Shown here: in pieces, positions 1 to 63,165 of the stretch
Layout: each line of letters opens with the position of its first letter
Position numbering within the stretch: position 1 is the stretch's first letter
Assembly (NCBI GenBank): GCA_964016885.1
Contig: OZ024742.1
Span: 247,566,001 to 247,630,000, forward strand
Direction of reading: 5' to 3'
DNA length: 64,000 bases
Origin: Eledone cirrhosa
Lineage: Eukaryota
Notes under the pieces: model-generated
Seen by the model: only the letters and a program-made list of their open reading frames with translations
The model's database searches: none
Told to the model about the DNA's origin: nothing
Translations under genes and position numbers: made by a program

Positions 1-166
1 ATTAGAAATTGGAATAAATGCTCTGAAATAGCGATATATATGTGAATATAGACATAGAATATTCGAAAATATTCTGTATGTTTATAATAAACATTTTGAA
101 GACCTAATCGCTATAGAATAGAATACGTCACGTATTACAATTAGATTCTCGATAAAAGCAAGGGAA

Positions 167-209
167 GTAATCTACGCGTTTCATTCTCGTTAGAAATCAT
201 CAGGACTAC
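167..209 (-). ncRNA. Minimal type I hammerhead ribozyme (repeated at 477, 787, 1097, 1407, 1717, 2027)
   Basis: Minus strand reads GTAGTC-CTGATGA-T TTCT AACG AGAA T-GAAA-CGCG-TA-GATTAC. Intact core, helix I GTAGTC/GATTAC, helix II TTCT/AGAA, palindromic helix III CGCG, GUA cleavage triplet. Helix I is extended by TTCTCGATAAAAGCA/TGCTTTTATCGAGAA. Confidence 0.88.
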
Positions 210-2523
210 ATATCCAGTGCTTTTATCGAGAATGACACAGCTAGAGACTTATAGAATACTTAGCTGTGTACAGGAACTGGTTTGAAAGAGCGGTTGCCGG
301 TCCGGCAGAAATTAGAAATTGGAATAAATGCTCTGAAATAGCGATATATATGTGAATATAGACATAGAATATTCGAAAATATTCTGTATGTTTATAATAA
401 ACATTTTGAAGACCTAATCGCTATAGAATAGAATACGTCACGTATTACAATTAGATTCTCGATAAAAGCAAGGGAAGTAATCTACGCGTTTCATTCTCGT
501 TAGAAATCATCAGGACTACATATCCAGTGCTTTTATCGAGAATGACACAGCTAGAGACTTATAGAATACTTAGCTGTGTACAGGAACTGGTTTGAAAGAG
601 CGGTTGCCGGTCCGGCAGAAATTAGAAATTGGAATAAATGCTCTGAAATAGCGATATATATGTGAATATAGACATAGAATATTCGAAAATATTCTGTATG
701 TTTATAATAAACATTTTGAAGACCTAATCGCTATAGAATAGAATACGTCACGTATTACAATTAGATTCTCGATAAAAGCAAGGGAAGTAATCTACGCGTT
801 TCATTCTCGTTAGAAATCATCAGGACTACATATCCAGTGCTTTTATCGAGAATGACACAGCTAGAGACTTATAGAATACTTAGCTGTGTACAGGAACTGG
901 TTTGAAAGAGCGGTTGCCGGTCCGGCAGAAATTAGAAATTGGAATAAATGCTCTGAAATAGCGATATATATGTGAATATAGACATAGAATATTCGAAAAT
1001 ATTCTGTATGTTTATAATAAACATTTTGAAGACCTAATCGCTATAGAATAGAATACGTCACGTATTACAATTAGATTCTCGATAAAAGCAAGGGAAGTAA
1101 TCTACGCGTTTCATTCTCGTTAGAAATCATCAGGACTACATATCCAGTGCTTTTATCGAGAATGACACAGCTAGAGACTTATAGAATACTTAGCTGTGTA
1201 CAGGAACTGGTTTGAAAGAGCGGTTGCCGGTCCGGCAGAAATTAGAAATTGGAATAAATGCTCTGAAATAGCGATATATATGTGAATATAGACATAGAAT
1301 ATTCGAAAATATTCTGTATGTTTATAATAAACATTTTGAAGACCTAATCGCTATAGAATAGAATACGTCACGTATTACAATTAGATTCTCGATAAAAGCA
1401 AGGGAAGTAATCTACGCGTTTCATTCTCGTTAGAAATCATCAGGACTACATATCCAGTGCTTTTATCGAGAATGACACAGCTAGAGACTTATAGAATACT
1501 TAGCTGTGTACAGGAACTGGTTTGAAAGAGCGGTTGCCGGTCCGGCAGAAATTAGAAATTGGAATAAATGCTCTGAAATAGCGATATATATGTGAATATA
1601 GACATAGAATATTCGAAAATATTCTGTATGTTTATAATAAACATTTTGAAGACCTAATCGCTATAGAATAGAATACGTCACGTATTACAATTAGATTCTC
1701 GATAAAAGCAAGGGAAGTAATCTACGCGTTTCATTCTCGTTAGAAATCATCAGGACTACATATCCAGTGCTTTTATCGAGAATGACACAGCTAGAGACTT
1801 ATAGAATACTTAGCTGTGTACAGGAACTGGTTTGAAAGAGCGGTTGCCGGTCCGGCAGAAATTAGAAATTGGAATAAATGCTCTGAAATAGCGATATATA
1901 TGTGAATATAGACATAGAATATTCGAAAATATTCTGTATGTTTATAATAAACATTTTGAAGACCTAATCGCTATAGAATAGAATACGTCACGTATTACAA
2001 TTAGATTCTCGATAAAAGCAAGGGAAGTAATCTACGCGTTTCATTCTCGTTAGAAATCATCAGGACTACATATCCAGTGCTTTTATCGAGAATGACACAG
2101 CTAGAGACTTATAGAATACTTAGCTGTGTACAGGAACTGGTTTGAAAGAGCGGTTGCCGGTCCGGCAGAAATTAGAAATTGGAATAAATGCTCTGAAATA
2201 GCGATATATATGTGAATATAGACATAGAATATTCGAAAATATTCTGTATGTTTATAATAAACATTTTGAAGACCTAATCGCTATAGAATAGAATACGTCA
2301 CGTATTACAATTAGATTCTCGATAAAAGCAAGGGAAGTAATCTACGCGTTTCATTCTCGAATATTCTATGTCTATATTCACATATATATCGCTATTTCAG
2401 AGCATTTATTCCAATTTCTAATTTCTGCCGGACCGGCAACCGCTCTTTCAAACCAGTTCCTGTACACAGCTAAGTATTCTATAAGTCTCTAGCTGTGTCA
2501 TTCTCGATAAAAGCACTGGATAT

Positions 2524-2566
2524 GTAGTCCTGATGATTTCTAACGAGAATGAAACGCGTAGATTAC
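2524..2566 (+). ncRNA. Minimal type I hammerhead ribozyme in inverted terminal copy
   Basis: GTAGTC CTGATGA(2530-2536) TTTCTAACGAGAAT GAAA CGCG TA GATTAC; predicted cleavage after A2560. Confidence 0.88.
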
Positions 2567-2709
2567 TTCCCTTGCTTTTATCGAGAATCTAATTGTAATA
2601 CGTGACGTATTCTATTCTATAGCGATTAGGTCTTCAAAATGTTTATTATAAACATACAGAATATTTTCGAATATTCTATGTCTATATTCATATATATATA
2701 TATATATTA

Positions 2710-12362: not shown

Positions 12363-12546
12363 TTTATTCCGGGTTGAATCGGAGGTAACCACAGTAAGTA
12401 AGGTACTCAATACATTGCAGAGTATAAAAGTTTTAATATAGATGAGATTCTACAGGACTAGAACTGTTTCATTCTTTAGAAATTCCTGATGATTTCTAAA
12501 GAATGAAACAGTTCTAGTCCTGTAGAATCTCATCTATATTAAAACC
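12362..12546 (-). mobile_element. Fold-back insertion in (TA)n with partial HHR at the fold
   Basis: Arms ~12430-12483/12492-12545. Plus strand CTGATGA TTTCTAAAGAAT GAAACAGTTC at 12486-12514 lacks the 5' half of helix I. Flanked by (TA)n. Confidence 0.75.
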
Positions 12547-14177: not shown

Positions 14178-14460
14178 AATATATGTATATATATATTTAT
14201 AATTTACTAAATTATTATTTAAAACGTCACAATCCAGAAGAGTAGGAACAAACATCTGTTGCAAAACACTTACGCGTGTTTCATTGATATGTAACATATC
14301 AGTCTAGGATCGCTAATTTTTGGCTATTTCAATCAAAGCAAATCGAGTAAAACACTACAATTGATTACTCCAACTGAAACTGAATAGTGCTATACATATA
14401 TGTTTATATATATATATATATATATGTATATGTATATACATACATATATATATATATATA

Positions 14461-16299
14461 AATTGAAACAAAATGAAAACGAAATTTCATTTCTCACTCT
14501 TAGTATGGCACTTACTTAAATGTAAGTATGCATGTATACGTACATACATATATGTATACAGACGTACAGTAGCATGCACATATATATATATATATATACA
14601 GACATATACATACATATGCATACAGGTACACATACATATATGCACGTATCAGTTTAGCGGCGCTAACGTCGCTTTGTTCGTTTGTAAACAAACTGAACAG
14701 CCTGAATTTATGCCATACGGTGTTAAGGCAACCACGTCACCTTTTTGTTCAACACTGACACAGGAACGATGTACTAGTTTCAAGCTTGTTAGCTATCATC
14801 AGCACCGTTTACCCATCTGCCAGATAGTTGAACGTTCGAAAGTATATACTTTCCTTATGAAAATTAACGGCTGAGCAGCCTAATTTGCATATTGAGTGAG
14901 TTAAATCGGTCAGGCATACCGAAAACGATAAATTGAAACAAAATGAAAACGAAATTTCATTTCTCACTCTTAGTATGGCACTTACTTAAATGTAAGTATG
15001 CATGTATACGTACATACATATATGTATACAGACGTACAGTAGCATGCACATATATATATATATATATACAGACATATACATACATATGCATACAGGTACA
15101 CATACATATATGCACGTATCAGTTTAGCGGCGCTAACGTCGCTTTGTTCGTTTGTAAACAAACTGAACAGCCTGAATTTATGCCATACGGTGTTAAGGCA
15201 ACCACGTCACCTTTTTGTTCAACACTGACACAGGAACGATGTACTAGTTTCAAGCTTGTTAGCTATCATCAGCACCGTTTACCCATCTGCCAGATAGTTG
15301 AACGTTCGAAAGTATATACTTTCCTTATGAAAATTAACGGCTGAGCAGCCTAATTTGCATATTGAGTGAGTTAAATCGGTCAGGCATACCGAAAACGATA
15401 AATTGAAACAAAATGAAAACGAAATTTCATTTCTCACTCTTAGTATGGCACTTACTTAAATGTAAGTATGCATGTATACGTACATACATATATGTATACA
15501 GACGTACAGTAGCATGCACATATATATATATATATATACAGACATATACATACATATGCATACAGGTACACATACATATATGCACGTATCAGTTTAGCGG
15601 CGCTAACGTCGCTTTGTTCGTTTGTAAACAAACTGAACAGCCTGAATTTATGCCATACGGTGTTAAGGCAACCACGTCACCTTTTTGTTCAACACTGACA
15701 CAGGAACGATGTACTAGTTTCAAGCTTGTTAGCTATCATCAGCACCGTTTACCCATCTGCCAGATAGTTGAACGTTCGAAAGTATATACTTTCCTTATGA
15801 AAATTAACGGCTGAGCAGCCTAATTTGCATATTGAGTGAGTTAAATCGGTCAGGCATACCGAAAACGATAAATTGAAACAAAATGAAAACGAAATTTCAT
15901 TTCTCACTCTTAGTATGGCACTTACTTAAATGTAAGTATGCATGTATACGTACATACATATATGTATACAGACGTACAGTAGCATGCACATATATATATA
16001 TATATATACAGACATATACATACATATGCATACAGGTATGGCATAAATTCAGGCAAACAAACAGGTAAACAAACTGAACAGCCTGAATTTATGCCATACA
16101 CCGTATGGCATAAATTCAGGCTGTTCAGTTTGTTTACAAACGAACAAAGCGACGTTAGCGCCGCTAAACTGATACGTGCATATATGTATGTGTACCTGTA
16201 TGCATATGTATGTATATGTCTGTATATATATATATATATATGTGCATGCTACTGTACGTCTGTATACATATATGTATGTACGTATACATGCATACTTAC

Positions 16300-16302
<3 letters not shown>
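14461..16302 (-). mobile_element. Retrozyme/PLE-type tandem array: 470-bp units (3.35 copies) plus terminal inverted segment, inserted in (TA)n
   Basis: AATTGAAACAAAATG recurs at 14461, 14931, 15401 and 15871; identical 133-aa ORFs support unit identity. ~16100-16302 is the reverse complement of ~14519-14721. (TA)n on both sides. Confidence 0.88.
14765..14809 (-). ncRNA. Minimal type I hammerhead ribozyme (repeated at 15235-15279 and 15705-15749)
   Basis: Minus strand AACGGTG-CTGATGA-T AGCT AACA AGCT T-GAAA-CTAG-TA-CATCGTT: 7-bp helix I, paired helix II, palindromic helix III CTAG, GUA triplet. Confidence 0.88.
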
Positions 16303-16365
<63 letters not shown>

Positions 16366-16372
16366 GTATATA

Positions 16373-16460
<88 letters not shown>

Positions 16461-16494
16461 TATAACGTTCATATATATATATATATATATATAT

Positions 16495-16547
<53 letters not shown>

Positions 16548-21481: not shown

Positions 21482-29617
<8,136 letters not shown>

Positions 29618-35364: not shown

Positions 35365-35973
35365 AGATACTATTTATAGTTATGTATGTATATACTATAC
35401 TATAAACAACTATAAACAGGGAAGGTCAGTAATTTATTACTACCTTATTACCAGTAAGAGAAACAGCTCAATGTAAGAACATCAGTTGTTTTACAGAGCA
35501 GTAATATAGAATACACAAGTATCAAAGTTATGTTAAAAACATTTAATCGCTGACAATTGTTTCTTCGAAACTTAGGCTTAGCGTCCTCAGAGCATTATCA
35601 ATGTTAGTACATATAATTAACCACCTATTCAACTGAAGAATCATACAGATACATATATATTGATGTTGTGGACAACAGTTTCATGTTTATAGTGTGGAAT
35701 GGATGCGACATATATTATATTATACGAGAATTGTACAATGTTTGTACAATTCTCGTATAATATAATATATGTCGCATCCATTCCACACTATAAACATGAA
35801 ACTGTTGTCCACAACATCAATATATATGTATCTGTTTGATTCTTCAGTTAAATAGGAGGTTAATTATATGTACAAACATTGATCATACTCCGATGACCCA
35901 AGCCTAAGTTTGGAAGAAACAATTGTCAGCGATTAAATGTTTTTAACATAACTTTGATACTTGTGTATTCTAT
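35360..35973 (-). mobile_element. Fold-back insertion (~235-bp arms) with HHR in each arm
   Basis: Arms ~35505-35738/35742-35973; unique tail to the left; (TA)n flanks. Confidence 0.8.
35545..35596 (-). ncRNA. Minimal type I hammerhead candidate (helix III CAATTG, GUC)
   Basis: Minus strand AATGCT-CTGAGGA-CGCTAAGCCTAAGTTTCGAA-GAAA-CAATTG-TC-AGCGATT. The mirror arm (35888-35934 +) has CCGATGA and a cleaner helix II CCAAGC/GTTTGG. Confidence 0.6.
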
Positions 35974-36057
35974 ATATATATATATATATATATAAATACA
36001 CCCCCCACACACACACCCACACACACACACATATATATATATATATGTATATATATA

Positions 36058-36980
36058 TAAAATTGCAAGTCTGAAAATATAAAATATATACAGTATTTCC
36101 TCTCCTAGTCCGTATAAATCAACCACATGAAAAATCATTTAAACGATGCTATAAGTTTATAATGTAATTATGAAGAAATAATAGACAAATTATACAGACT
36201 ATCTTTCGCGATGTACAGCCATGACATTTATCTAAATATTTCTTTTAGCCTGTAGAAATTGACTAAACAGATAATTAACTACACGGGGTTAGGTACAAAA
36301 TAGAAGTTTGAAGAACAAATACACAAACTTTACAAAAATTCCTCTAGTCCTGAGCACCGGCGGTTCATTCTACTTTTTGGATATATCCGATCTTGGATCT
36401 ATCCACGAGGCTTGGAACTCATCAAGAGATACCTCAGACTGGACTAAGTTTTTTCTACCATGATCCCCGCCAGAAATGAATTCAAAATGGTAGAAACAAC
36501 TTAGTTCAATCTGAGGTATCTCCTGAGGAGTTCCAAGCCTCGTGGATAGATGCAAGATCAGGAATATCCAAAATGTGGAAGGAAATCGCCGGTGGTCCGG
36601 ACTAGAAGAATTTTGGTAAAGTTTATATGCATTTTATCTTCAAACTTCTATTTTGTACCTAACCCCGTGTAGTTAATTATCTGTTTAGTCAATTTCTACG
36701 GGCAAAAAGAACTAATTAGATAATTGTCATATGGCTGTACTTCCCGGAAGATAGTCTGTATCATTTGTCTATTATTTCTCCATAGTTACATTATAAACTT
36801 AAAGCCTTGTTTAAATGATCTTTTATGAGGTTGATTTATACGGACTAGGAGAGGAAATACTGTATATATTTTATCTAATAGTTCTTCAGACTTGCAATTT
36901 TATATATAGATCTCATTAATGATTATTTGCTTAATTAATTCTTCATTGAGCCACACCGTGAAAGGTAGCCAAACTCATAT
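36058..36980 (+). mobile_element. Long imperfect fold-back (~400-bp arms) plus tail
   Basis: AAAATTGCAAGTCTGAA (36059) pairs with TTCAGACTTGCAATTTT (~36885-36901). Arms are colinear up to a loop at ~36462-36486, with many scattered mismatches. Confidence 0.8.
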
Positions 36981-37261: not shown

Positions 37262-37374
37262 TATAGAAGTGGTTACACAACAGTTAGTTCACCATACCGA
37301 GAACAATTGTTTCACCTTAGCGGATCCTCAGCTCGTAATGGACATGGTATATGGAAAAGGAAGGACAACCGTAC

Positions 37375-51827: not shown

Positions 51828-52479
51828 GAATAAAAGAATGAGAGAAAAAAGGACAGTAAGAAGGAAATAAGTGAGATATGTTGTGTTGTTAAATGTGTAA
51901 GATTGGTGTATGGCTCGAAGCGTAACATTGATAGATGGATAGAAAATGTTCAACTGAAGATTTTCCCAATAATATAATGGAATTGTGGACTAGAGCAAAA
52001 ATAGTGAGGACAACAATAGCAACGACTACAACAACAACAATAACAATTACAACAACTAGAAGAGCAATAGCAACAACTATAGCAATAAAAACAGCAACTA
52101 TAACGTCAACAACAACAATGCCAGCAACATCAACATCTACAACTACTAGTGGTTCAACAATAGCAACGACTACAACAGTAACAACAAAAACAAAACACTA
52201 CTACAACAACAGTAGCAGCAATAGTAACAGCTATATCAATAACAAAAAAACAGCAACTATAATGTTAGCAACAACAATATCATCAACATCACCAACAACA
52301 ACCATTACTACTACTAACTAAACAGCAGATTCTAGATAGATGAAAACCAAAACAACAGATTCAACAAAAATAACAACTAAAATATCAACAACAAAAACAG
52401 CAACAATAAATACTACTACAGTATCATCGACACCACCAACAAGAACAGCAATACCAACAAATTCCCTATTAACAGCAAC

Positions 52480-54677
52480 AAAATCAACAACACCACCACC
52501 ACCACCGCCATCATCATCTCCTTCCTCATCACCAACAACAACACCACTATCAACAACAACACCACTACTACCAACAACAACACCACTACTACCAAAGAAA
52601 CCACTACCACCTACAACAGCACCCCTACCACAAACAACAGCACCACAATCACCATCAACAACAACACTTCTACCAACAAAAACAACACTACCACCAACAG
52701 CAACACCACTACCACCAACAACAACACCACAATCACCACCATCAACAACAACACTACCACCAACAATAACACCACTACCACCAACAACAACACCACAATC
52801 ACCACCATCAACAACAACACTACCACCAACAATAACACCACTACCACCAACAACAACACCACAATCACCACCAACAGCAACACCACTACCATCAACAATA
52901 ACACGACTACCACCAACAACAACACCACAATCACCATCAACAACAACACCACTACCACCATCAACAACAACACTTCTTCCAACAAAAACAACACTACCAC
53001 CAACAGCAATACCACTACCACCAACAGCAACACCACTACCATCAACAATAACACGACTACCACCAACAACACCACCACAATCACCATCAACAACAACACC
53101 ACTACCACCAACAATAACACAACTACCACCAACAACAACACCACAATCACCACCAGCAACAACACCACTACCACCAAGAATAGCACCACTACCACCAACA
53201 ACATCACTACAATCACCACCAACAACACCACTACCACCAAGAATAGCACCACTACCACCAACACCAGCACCACTATCACAAACAACAACACCACCACCAA
53301 CAACAACAACAGCACCACAATCACCACCAACAACATCACTACAATCACCACCAACAACACCACTACCACCAACAACAGCACCACTACCACCAACAACAGC
53401 ATCACAATAACCACCAACAACAGCACCACAATCACCACCAACAACAGCACCACAATCACCACCAACAACAGCACCACAATCACCACCAACAACGGTACCA
53501 CAATCACCACCAACAACAGCACCACAATCACCAACAACACCACTACCACCAACAATAGCATCACAATCACCACCACCAACAACACCACTACCACCACCAA
53601 CAACAACACCACCACTACAACCAACAACATCACTACTACCAACAACAGCACCACAATCACCAACAATATCACTACCACCAACAACAGCACTACTACCACC
53701 AACAACAACAATACCACTACCACCAACAATAACACCACTACCACCAACAACAGTACCACAATCACCACCAACAACAGCACTACTACCACCAATAACAACA
53801 CCACTACCACCAACAACAACACCACTACCACCAACAACAGCACCACAATCACCACCAACAACAGCACCACAATCACCACCGACAACAGCACCACAATCAC
53901 CACCAACAACAGCACCACAATCACCACCAACAACAGCACCACAATCACCACCAACAACAGCACCACAATCACCAACCAATAACAGCACCACAATCACCAC
54001 CAACAACAGCAACACAATCACCACCAACAACAGCAACACAATCACCAACCAACAACAGCACAACTACCACCAACAACAACACCACTACCACCAACAACAA
54101 CACCACTACCACCAACAACAGCGCTACATTCACCACCAACAACAGCAACACAATCACCACCAACAACAGCAACACAATCACCACCAACAACAGCACCACA
54201 ATCACCAACCAACAACAGCACAACTACCACCAACAACAGCACCACAATCACCACCAACAACAGCAACACAATCACCACCAACAACAGCACCACAATCACC
54301 ACCAACAACAGCACCACAATCACCACCAACAACAGCAACACAATCACCACCAACAACAGCAACACAATCACCACCAACAACAGCACCACAATCACCAACC
54401 AACAACAGCACCACAATCACCACCAACAACAGCAACACAATCACCACCAACAACAGCAACACAATCACCACCAACAACAGCACCACAATCACCAACCAAC
54501 AACAGCACCACAATCACCACCAACAACAGCACCACAATCACCACCAACAACAGCACCACAATCACCAACCAACAACAGCACCACAATCACCACCAACAAC
54601 AGCACCACAATCACCAACCAACAACAGCACCACAATCACCAACCAACAACAGCACCACAATCACCACCAACAACAGT
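52480..54677. repeat. ACC/AAC-derived minisatellite (21/24/25-bp units, e.g. CCACCAACAACAGCACCACAATCA)
   Basis: Units become homogeneous rightwards; they produce the Pro/Thr-rich and Val/Gly-rich pseudo-ORFs. Confidence 0.9.
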
Positions 54678-54779
54678 CATTTGAGAGAATACAACCATCA
54701 GATAAAATCACAAGTAACATAAAAAAACAGCCTCTCTTGTAAAGCAACACAAACAATAACATCAATCATTGAGAGTAAT

Positions 54780-62073: not shown

Positions 62074-62947
62074 TATTATTATATTTTTTCGTTAGCTATA
62101 ATTAAAGGAGAGATCTGACATATGCAATATATACAATATTTTATTTCAAATTAAAATTCCTTTAAAAGTATTTCTTGTGGCTGGCTGTTTTCACCTTCGG
62201 AATATTTCTATATCGATCTGATTAAAATTTCGAGAATCTTGATTGAAAATTCATTTAAAATTATTCACTGTGTTAGTCTATTTTTCTTGGGTAGAGAGAA
62301 AATGTTGAATCCGCTCTGATGGATAACATCTATAACTCTAAAGTCCAACCCAATTAAATACTGTGTCTGACTGATTCTGCATCAAATTTACGTTAATAGT
62401 AGAGCTGTCAGTCTAAAGCCCAAACACTTACACGTTAAATTATGAGTCGGACGAGTGGTTGATCGAATAGCTGGATGGTCATCCTCGAAAATTAGGGAAA
62501 ACTCCAAAGATAACTTATAGACGCTCTGTGGTGCTAAGACTATAACACGTTTACAACAATATAATATATACGTATGAGACATGACAACCCATGACTAAAA
62601 TTATCTCATTTATCATATTCTTATATTCCCGTTTCAATCAATTCTCTTATTCTTCTTGACCGCATTCATTTATTTCTTTACACCAGGACCAACACTCTTT
62701 CCTCTATCATTTCTCCATCGTAATATATATATACATATATATGTACACAAACATATTTATAAGTACGCACACATTGATACACCCACCCATCCACACACAT
62801 ACGCACACACATTCTAATTCTATTCCATAGTAAGAGTCAACTTATACAGCTTCATATGCAAATGAGATTAATCACCTCATTTACACAGATGAGAAAACTA
62901 TATATTCTCACCTGTTTTTAAGTTCTGCAGCTGCAAAAGCGGGAGAG

Positions 62948-62991
62948 ATTGTCCTGATGAGAACCAGTTCAGTTCGAAATGCATCGACGAT
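62948..62991 (+). ncRNA. Solo minimal type I hammerhead
   Basis: ATTGTC-CTGATGA-GAAC CAGTTCA GTTC-GAAA-TGCA-TC-GACGAT; palindromic helix III TGCA, AUC triplet; outer AAGCGGG/CTTGCTT pairing; (TA)n ~135 nt downstream. Confidence 0.8.
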
Positions 62992-63165
62992 TGTCCCCCT
63001 TGCTTCTGCTCGACACCACCTGGTGGCGATAACTGTCGTTGTTTTTGCATAACTACTGCTTTCTAAATTTTTATGTACACACAGAGCGTATTTCATTAGA
63101 AATACGAAATTCCTATATAGGCACAACTATATATATATATATATACATATATATATGTAGAAACA

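Follow-up and report, generated by a model that had tools for sequence, protein, structure and literature searches.

A protein-free 470-nt hammerhead repeat inserted in TA microsatellites of Eledone cirrhosa with the two-ended footprint of Penelope-like elements

The window considered here is a 64,000-nucleotide stretch of DNA (C3:247566001-247630000) from the 3.0-Gb, microsatellite-rich genome of Eledone cirrhosa, which also carries spliceosomal RNA genes. TRF and a script delimit in it an array with a 470-nt period at 14458-16038 that is 100% identical over 3.36 units, the first three being free of mismatches and the fourth matching over 168 nt, in good agreement with the 3.35 identical units counted in an earlier note on this DNA. 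The unit has a GC content of about 0.36 and is numbered in the ribozyme sense, such that the long 3′ end (window 14461) is position 470 and the cut is predicted at 159|160. The long arm of the insertion, comprising these head-to-tail units, occupies 14461..16038 on the minus strand (the ribozyme sense), and its 3′ end, unit 470, adjoins at 14461 the (TA)n-rich target microsatellite of the left flank (14391..14460), with 3 nt of microhomology reaching to 14458. A short opposed arm of 207 nt (unit 208-414), which lacks the ribozyme, lies on the plus strand at 16097..16303 and ends, at unit 414, on the (TA)n target microsatellite of the right flank (16304..16543; the tract is also given from 16303). 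The inverted segment and the (TA)n at both ends had been recognized in the earlier note and correspond to this arm and to the tracts at 14391-14460 and 16303-16543, respectively. The two arms meet in a 64-nt patchwork junction (16036..16099), a feature not mentioned in the note, which is made up of 19 nt in inverted orientation, some 10 nt of filler and 35 nt in forward orientation, and likely arose from template switches.

Within the unit, the 56 nt between the two 3′ ends (unit 415-470; 14461..14516, minus strand) form a tail that is predicted to fold into hairpins, with the short end falling in a loop. A TA/TG-rich self-complementary segment (14535..14651, minus strand) forms the long hairpin of the predicted circular fold and differs in length from locus to locus. 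A minimal type I hammerhead with an extended helix I (14747..14833), a TATA-like box TATATA (14843..14848) and a U6/U6atac-type upstream box TATGCAAATTAG (14880..14891), whose start lies 42 nt ahead of the TATA-like box, all lie on the minus strand and recur at +470 and +940. No ORF of at least 150 aa is contained in the array, as expected from the earlier statement that it has no recognizable coding capacity; the sole overlapping one, 15983-16465, extends into the (TA)n flank, and no ORF with reverse transcriptase (RT) and GIY-YIG domains is present at the array locus.

The hammerhead core CUGAUGA occurs once in each of the three full units on the minus strand, at 14802, 15272, and 15742. In the first of them, CUGAUGA (14802-14796) is accompanied by GAAA (14781-14778) and the helix III strand CUAG (14777-14774), and the predicted cut is at 14772|14771, the same position as had been predicted before; the minus-strand motif with helix III CTAG and GUA, read earlier from the letters, is thus borne out in 3/3 full units. 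Helix I, AACGGUG/CAUCGUU, is lengthened by two further helices, whereas helix II, AGCU/AGCU, carries a U.U at its base (10.1-11.1) and is followed by GAAA, the palindromic CUAG, UA, and the cut. Since a search of the window at the Rfam gathering threshold gave 0 matches, the hammerhead call is based on motif and covariation. Among 16 relatives from old and young subfamilies, 86% of the cells are paired, with 29 double-sided changes, 0/500 shuffles being as high and slid controls reaching 24-39% paired; it has to be noted that two of the five measures are not clearly above shuffles (34/500 and 346/500) and that kinship among the relatives inflates the remaining ones. To close, helix III would require a loop of 2 nt, but in pairing with a second copy the palindrome gives a 6-bp duplex, and the active form is therefore likely to be a double hammerhead joined through the palindromic helix III. 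Folding of the lone monomer predicts its catalytic core to pair with helix III, so that the monomer would not be expected to cut itself. The circular monomer has a predicted folding energy of -152 kcal/mol, as opposed to -107 ± 6 kcal/mol for 40 shuffles, with 67% of it paired, its low energy being due in part to the TA-rich segment. Self-cleavage of the 470-nt transcript at GUA is predicted from motif and fold.

The exact 44-nt ribozyme has 8,284 matches in the genome (4253 + 4031), as compared to 0 for the reversed-pattern control. The first 100 of these matches fall into 32 clusters, of which 12 are head-to-head, none tail-to-tail, and 20 of a single orientation, and by extrapolation from them the family is present at about 2,650 loci (also given as an estimated 2,600). 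A ribozyme dispersed over thousands of copies means that the array is not a local duplication, and the outcome named in the earlier note as contrary to its own reading, i.e. a unit found at a single locus through local tandem duplication, is not what the genome holds. Exact patterns retrieve 907 junctions of the long end (470) with (TA)n, 304 junctions of position 414 with (TA)n, and 4,785 internal unit junctions, and further short ends are found at 405, 408, and 411, positions at which 1-2 nt are common to unit and (TA)n. Most insertions consist of head-to-head arms that point outward; one of the two stops at unit 470, the other at 405-414, and (TA)n adjoins each. Among 20 loci picked by the long end alone, the opposed short end at 405-414 is present in 15 by strict pattern and in two more by alignment; at 19 loci picked for nearby long and short patterns, the two ends sit on opposite arms; and loci picked by the ribozyme pattern alone likewise end in TA-rich microsatellite, a target-site duplication being unreadable inside (TA)n. 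In 40 loci the arms are made of unit sequence, the exceptions being short pieces at junctions and a single locus that has captured flank.

Two tail-only insertions were also seen, one (L067:846-1140) with an inverted copy of the neighbouring genomic DNA separating the tail from a short arm of 18 nt, and the other (L055:844-913) with a 12-nt duplication in place of the second arm. The 470-nt unit is further present in six sequencing runs of unknown kind from four organisms, no RNA run being listed among those that contain it; four of the six runs yielded 4,271, 26, 1, and 1 contigs, respectively, counts from which nothing is concluded about expression or host range.

These data can be set against the reading of the array as an ordinary satellite or minisatellite, in which old single insertions would have been expanded by local slippage or unequal crossover and the inversion would be a later rearrangement. 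The identity of units within one locus agrees with such an origin, and local amplification from termini of Penelope-like elements (PLEs) is discussed by Li et al. (10.64898/2026.07.22.740005); however, the same two ends and the head-to-head geometry recur at hundreds of loci, both arms of one locus can be multimeric with common variants, and the tail-to-tail orientation is absent from the 32 clusters. The satellite reading is already largely refuted, and we regard it as exceedingly improbable.

The recurrent ends are readily understood in terms of PLE biology. PLEs are described as forming partial tandems with an inverted 5′-truncated copy, a 30-40-bp tail on one end and a bias for (TA)n, and non-autonomous Chlamys elements as forming multicopy head-to-tail insertions (Craig et al. 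2021, PMC8557442), while the in vitro work of Frangieh et al. (2024, PMC11167929) reports that a PLE protein cleaves AT-rich DNA on both strands and extends them, and that RT begins at two sites inside the RNA, between which the tail lies. The offset between the two ends of the present insertions (470 and 405-414) is, as judged from the layout of their termini, the PLE tail footprint. Because the ends match the two PLE RT start sites and the same layout is found at a coding PLE of this genome, the insertions point to PLE machinery. That coding element, L116:3260-6525 (C1:97887259-97890524), is a 3,266-bp head-to-head RT/GIY-YIG insertion, 99.7% perfect, in (TA)n and with a 54-nt tail; together with L105 it represents one PLE family with RT and C-terminal GIY-YIG, whose own minimal hammerhead is unusual in being small, with a 4-nt segment between the core halves.

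A first look at the genome gave 10,596 GIY-YIG candidates, of which 150 were scored. Pfam scanning of six long ORFs detected RVT_1 in all six and, in four of them, GIY-YIG at the C terminus, L105 having both; the three PLE ORFs inspected have the CxxxxCxxC linker of the Neptune/Nematis kind, and an atlas look-up of the L102 protein returned a PLE-like domain set. An autonomous PLE sharing the ends of the 470-nt unit was not found among 50 GIY-YIG loci, in a search that scored 150 of the 10,596 candidates; the only matches were inserted copies of the unit, and no pLTR relative was found. Taken together, the termini make it very likely that the 470-nt element is non-autonomous and PLE-mobilized.

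Twin priming produces head-to-head inversions, and rolling-circle DNA transposons produce tandem arrays, so that a different mobilizer, either a LINE RT or a Helitron-like DNA rolling circle, can be envisaged. The 470-nt unit, however, does not end 3′ in a poly(A) or simple repeat of its own, its second priming site keeps to 405-414 instead of being scattered, the geometry is identical at the coding PLE of the same genome, and type I hammerheads are known to accompany PLEs (PMC8557442, PMC7229834), all of which renders such a mobilizer highly improbable.

The window contains another hammerhead array, with a 310-nt unit, and the earlier note had stated that the two units are alike only in the catalytic core; their comparison indeed yields only a 37-nt core (76%, E 0.003) and low-complexity TA matches. 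A shared tail motif of the two families, seen by eye, was rejected by a profile test, in which a tail-plus-promoter profile of 17 relatives scored at best -0.4 bits on the 310-nt unit, with shuffles reaching 7.5. The U6-like box is absent from the 310-nt unit. A common hairpin at the short start was also considered and is not taken as a shared signal, being present in the 470-nt family and in another family of the window (core at +62954), marginal in the 310-nt family and absent from the MFE fold of the L116 PLE family. The 310-nt family has 4,018 exact ribozyme copies, with opposed arms in most of the matches listed, the arms being long and regular. Its array is complete when window 1-2690 is taken together with L101:9071-10000, the long end lying in (TA)n 930 nt to the left of the window and the opposed short arm ending near 2690. 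As the earlier note had held, the two arrays have the same layout, both with opposed arms, two 3′ ends and (TA)n targets. Its further proposal of an independent non-autonomous element on the same machinery is supported: the 470-nt element is separate, dispersed, and non-autonomous, and support for a common machinery is at the class level (PLE RT/endonuclease) and does not reach that of the family, since the tails are unlike in sequence and in length (56 nt and 43 nt in the 470-nt and 310-nt families, respectively) and no partner was found among the 50 GIY-YIG loci.

Several further features of the window were recorded. A single copy of the +62954 family (62856-63130, plus strand; core 62954, helix III UGCA) carries a U6-like box and TATA with 43-nt spacing and a (TA)n end, and has many copies genome-wide. 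A short near-perfect palindrome in (TA)n around a 310-related hammerhead core (about 12430-12545) looks like a tiny head-to-head insertion, and two large palindromes of 473 and 860 bp (35504-35975 and 36049-36911) are likely to be more of these. Additional hammerhead-like cores at 37331 (-), 37779 (+), 35049 (+), 35590 (-), and 43690 (-), among them one head-to-head pair with a palindromic helix III CAAUUG, are probably other PLE termini or retrozymes. A 4-kb direct duplication (21482-25414 / 25615-29617, 94.6%) flanks a 200-N gap and is possibly an assembly artefact, and a long Pro/Thr-rich repeat open in several frames (52340-54742, plus strand) is mucin-like or a plain minisatellite.

The upstream box of the 470-nt unit can be compared directly with host genes. 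The U6 genes L121, L122, and L123 have TATGC(A/T)AAT(T/G)AG at about -78 and TATA at -30, the U6atac gene L210 has a one-letter variant of this upstream box, and the U2 genes carry a different element. The box of the unit is identical, over 12/12 nt, to the -78/-77 box of L122; a U2-type promoter was rejected as its source, the host U2 genes being without the box. The spacing from box to TATA is 42 nt in the 470-nt family, 43 in the +62954 family and about 47 in a third family, as compared to 47-48 in U6. The U6-like box is at the expected place in three of the 14 U6 matches listed and in 1/8 U6atac matches, most of the others being pseudogene-like and lacking it. A genome search for box plus TATA, with a pattern that excludes the young 470-nt family, gave 3,417 matches, as opposed to 327 for the control; of the 29 loci listed, 15 show a strict hammerhead core between +89 and +106 and most of the others a decayed one. 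These loci represent older 470-nt subfamilies, the +62954 family and two more families. Two loci, L191 and L192 (C1:21716275 and 22607353), belong to a hammerhead repeat family with about the U6 box-TATA spacing (47 nt), and this family may be the closest to the captured promoter. No U6-like box was found in 14 coding PLE loci of the genome. The host also has a tandem U6 cluster at C19:31780605-31840331 (about 1.8-kb period) and a U2 cluster at C3:307349256-307453739 (about 2.2-kb).

With regard to the polymerase, the 470-nt subfamily of the window has T runs of only T4, and every unit of an array-forming sister subfamily has runs of T7-T15. Pol III should stop at runs of the latter length, and these, together with the short spacing, argue against plain Pol III. 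That the unit has a working U6-derived promoter is suggested by its box and TATA and is, in our estimate, somewhat probable.

The nature of the RNA template was approached through the clonality of units within loci. Unit positions 1-283 were compared at 64 loci (the window and 63 on C1), dropping diverged units that did not align end to end, which provided 168 units at 36 loci with at least two units. In 10/36 of these multi-unit loci a rare variant (found in at most two loci) is present in all units, which we infer to be about what would be expected from the copying of one random monomer, although “private” here means rare among 64 loci, nearly all on one chromosome, and such variants may mark unsampled subfamilies. 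At three loci the fixed rare variants extend across both opposed arms (L042, 8/8; L054, 7/7; L060, 4/4). A 6-nt insertion occurs in 18 loci, at most 1/36 having units both with and without it, and single-unit variants amount to 70 in the 168 units, about 0.4 per 283 nt. The longest array, L050, has about 19 units. Rare variants fixed in both arms and arrays of this length suggest that one monomer was copied over and over, in the simplest case a circle, and this is probably the template; given PLE mobilization, it is fairly likely that the monomer circle is the main one.

The inner ends of the arms, read off by hand at 44 two-armed loci, provide a second constraint. None of the 88 lies within 2 nt of the cut site and five lie within 150-170, as compared to 3.9 expected; the absence of enrichment at the cut site means that cut linear monomers are not the template, and this candidate was ruled out. 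Long arms end within 400-450 in 9/44 cases, as opposed to 4.8 expected, a weak hint at tail-only arms. An alternative that accounts for the inner ends equally well is that PLE insertion proceeds from an uncleaved linear read-through transcript of an array, e.g. an intronic one, in which the ribozyme would be a passenger and the uniformity of units would derive from a few uniform masters or from gene conversion or unequal crossover. Consistent with that, PLE insertion in vitro was reported to be independent of ribozyme cleavage, with unprocessed RNA being used and ribozyme mutants having no effect (PMC11167929). Moreover, three loci are non-clonal (L050, with 139C>T in 3/18 and in both arms; L218, with 253A>G in 6/8; and L220, 2/3); these mosaics fit multimeric templates or later local duplication, and uncut multimers explain them better than a monomer does. 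On the other hand, the rare variants fixed in both arms of three loci would in this case need a one-monomer bottleneck followed by amplification, the frequency of fixed rare variants about matches the copying of one random monomer, arrays cannot lengthen by linear copying, yet L050 has reached its present length, and the pairing of the ribozyme has been maintained by compensatory changes over old subfamilies. The linear template is thus unlikely, albeit much less so than the satellite or the other mobilizers, and the monomer circle is retained as the preferred template.

The dispersion of the unit, its opposed arms with two 3′ ends, its (TA)n targets, the near-clonal arrays, the conserved ribozyme fold, and the U6-like box are properties of the DNA itself. 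The model that best connects them, and which we hold to be moderately probable as a whole, is that of a protein-free hammerhead repeat of 470 nt copied into TA microsatellites by a PLE RT-endonuclease, probably from a circular RNA monomer. According to this model, an array would be transcribed across several units, likely from the U6-like box and TATA of the upstream unit, the polymerase being uncertain. Adjacent minimal hammerheads would then pair via the palindromic helix III and cut at GUA, freeing 470-nt monomers, which would be ligated into circles. The PLE protein would open a (TA)n tract by a nick in either strand; from the two 3′ ends so exposed, reverse transcription would be primed at one or the other of two internal sites separated by about 56 nt, each RT circling the template for a variable number of turns. 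Once joined, the two cDNAs would form arms placed head-to-head, only one side of which would have the tail, and through circular permutation the element could bring along an upstream promoter of its own.

A broader and more tentative proposal, which we would put at somewhat below even, is that these elements are an old radiation of protein-free circular-RNA parasites with a captured host U6/U6atac promoter, not descended from a PLE terminus. In such a scenario, circular permutation by the ribozyme would carry along a promoter that is otherwise external, and a recruited PLE dimer would nick both (TA)n strands and carry out rolling-circle reverse transcription twice on a single circle, from two fixed starts. 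If true, each insertion would directly document, in genomic DNA, that a circRNA had undergone rolling-circle target-primed reverse transcription in the germline of an animal. The 470-nt repeat is likely to be parasitic, its RNA, which is probably circular, serving PLE enzymes as a template for DNA, and no host function is indicated for the family by the sequence evidence. Both the mobilizer of animal retrozymes and the circle as its template are given as hypotheses in two published studies (PMC7229834, 10.64898/2026.07.22.740005); thousands of young insertions, with ends matching PLE RT starts and with clonality that can be scored genome-wide, make both questions directly testable. The unit further offers a minimal substrate for the existing in vitro PLE system, and an snRNA-promoter origin is indicated for a ribozyme-bearing, SINE-like group.

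Among known elements, the 470-nt family resembles the EN+ PLEs (Neptune/Naiad types) and Chlamydomonas MRC1 in its one-end tail, inverted 5′-truncated arm, partial tandems, and (TA)n target, and the non-autonomous members also in multicopy head-to-tail insertions (PMC8557442), and the reported location of one PLE RT start in a stem-loop (PMC11167929) is paralleled by the predicted loop at the short end of the unit. It differs from coding PLEs in lacking an ORF and in the length of its tail, 56 nt as compared to 30-40 nt, and from MRC1-type elements, which resemble the 3′ end of their partner, in that no such partner was found among the 50 GIY-YIG loci. With respect to its promoter, the unit is similar to newt satellite 2, which has an snRNA-type promoter used by Pol II, and to the schistosome hammerhead satellite, with a Pol III promoter (PMC2220036), in being a hammerhead repeat with an internal small-RNA-gene promoter; in contrast to these, its box is the host U6/U6atac element and not that of U2, and its spacing to TATA is shortened.

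The closest relatives are the non-LTR retrozymes, which were defined, and their circles and, in axolotl, cleavage that depends on dimers shown, by Cervera and de la Peña (2020, PMC7229834), who also proposed a model with a circRNA template and a PLE helper. Frog retrozymes have since been linked to PLE pLTRs, with cleavage in 1/9 predicted retrozyme dimers (Li, Clavereau and Pollet 2026, bioRxiv 10.64898/2026.07.22.740005). With a type I hammerhead in each unit, a non-coding tandem unit of GC <50% and many loci, on the one hand, and a one-end tail, an inverted truncated copy with partial tandems and a microsatellite target, on the other, the 470-nt element is by sequence criteria both a non-LTR retrozyme, a class that the earlier note had not named, and a non-autonomous PLE. 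Its length is slightly above the 150-450 bp given for retrozyme units in PMC7229834 and within the 51-972 bp of 10.64898/2026.07.22.740005. The axolotl motifs, in which a weak palindromic helix III makes dimers necessary and helix II has a U.U at its base (PMC7229834), are matched by the palindromic helix III and the U.U of the 470-nt family. Listings of openly accessible literature on hammerhead ribozymes, on cephalopods/octopus and on Pol III with PSE contained no description of the 470-nt family or of the promoter link, and the main texts of PMC7229834 and 10.64898/2026.07.22.740005 make no mention of tails, inverted arms, promoters, or within-locus clonality for retrozymes. The class as such is already known; new here is the U6/U6atac box with TATA, and the PLE footprints are unusually clear. 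In the latter, the 470-nt family differs from the retrozymes described before: their mobilization by PLEs has been hypothesized from co-occurrence and pLTR phylogeny, whereas the 470-nt insertions themselves carry the two-start footprint of a PLE.
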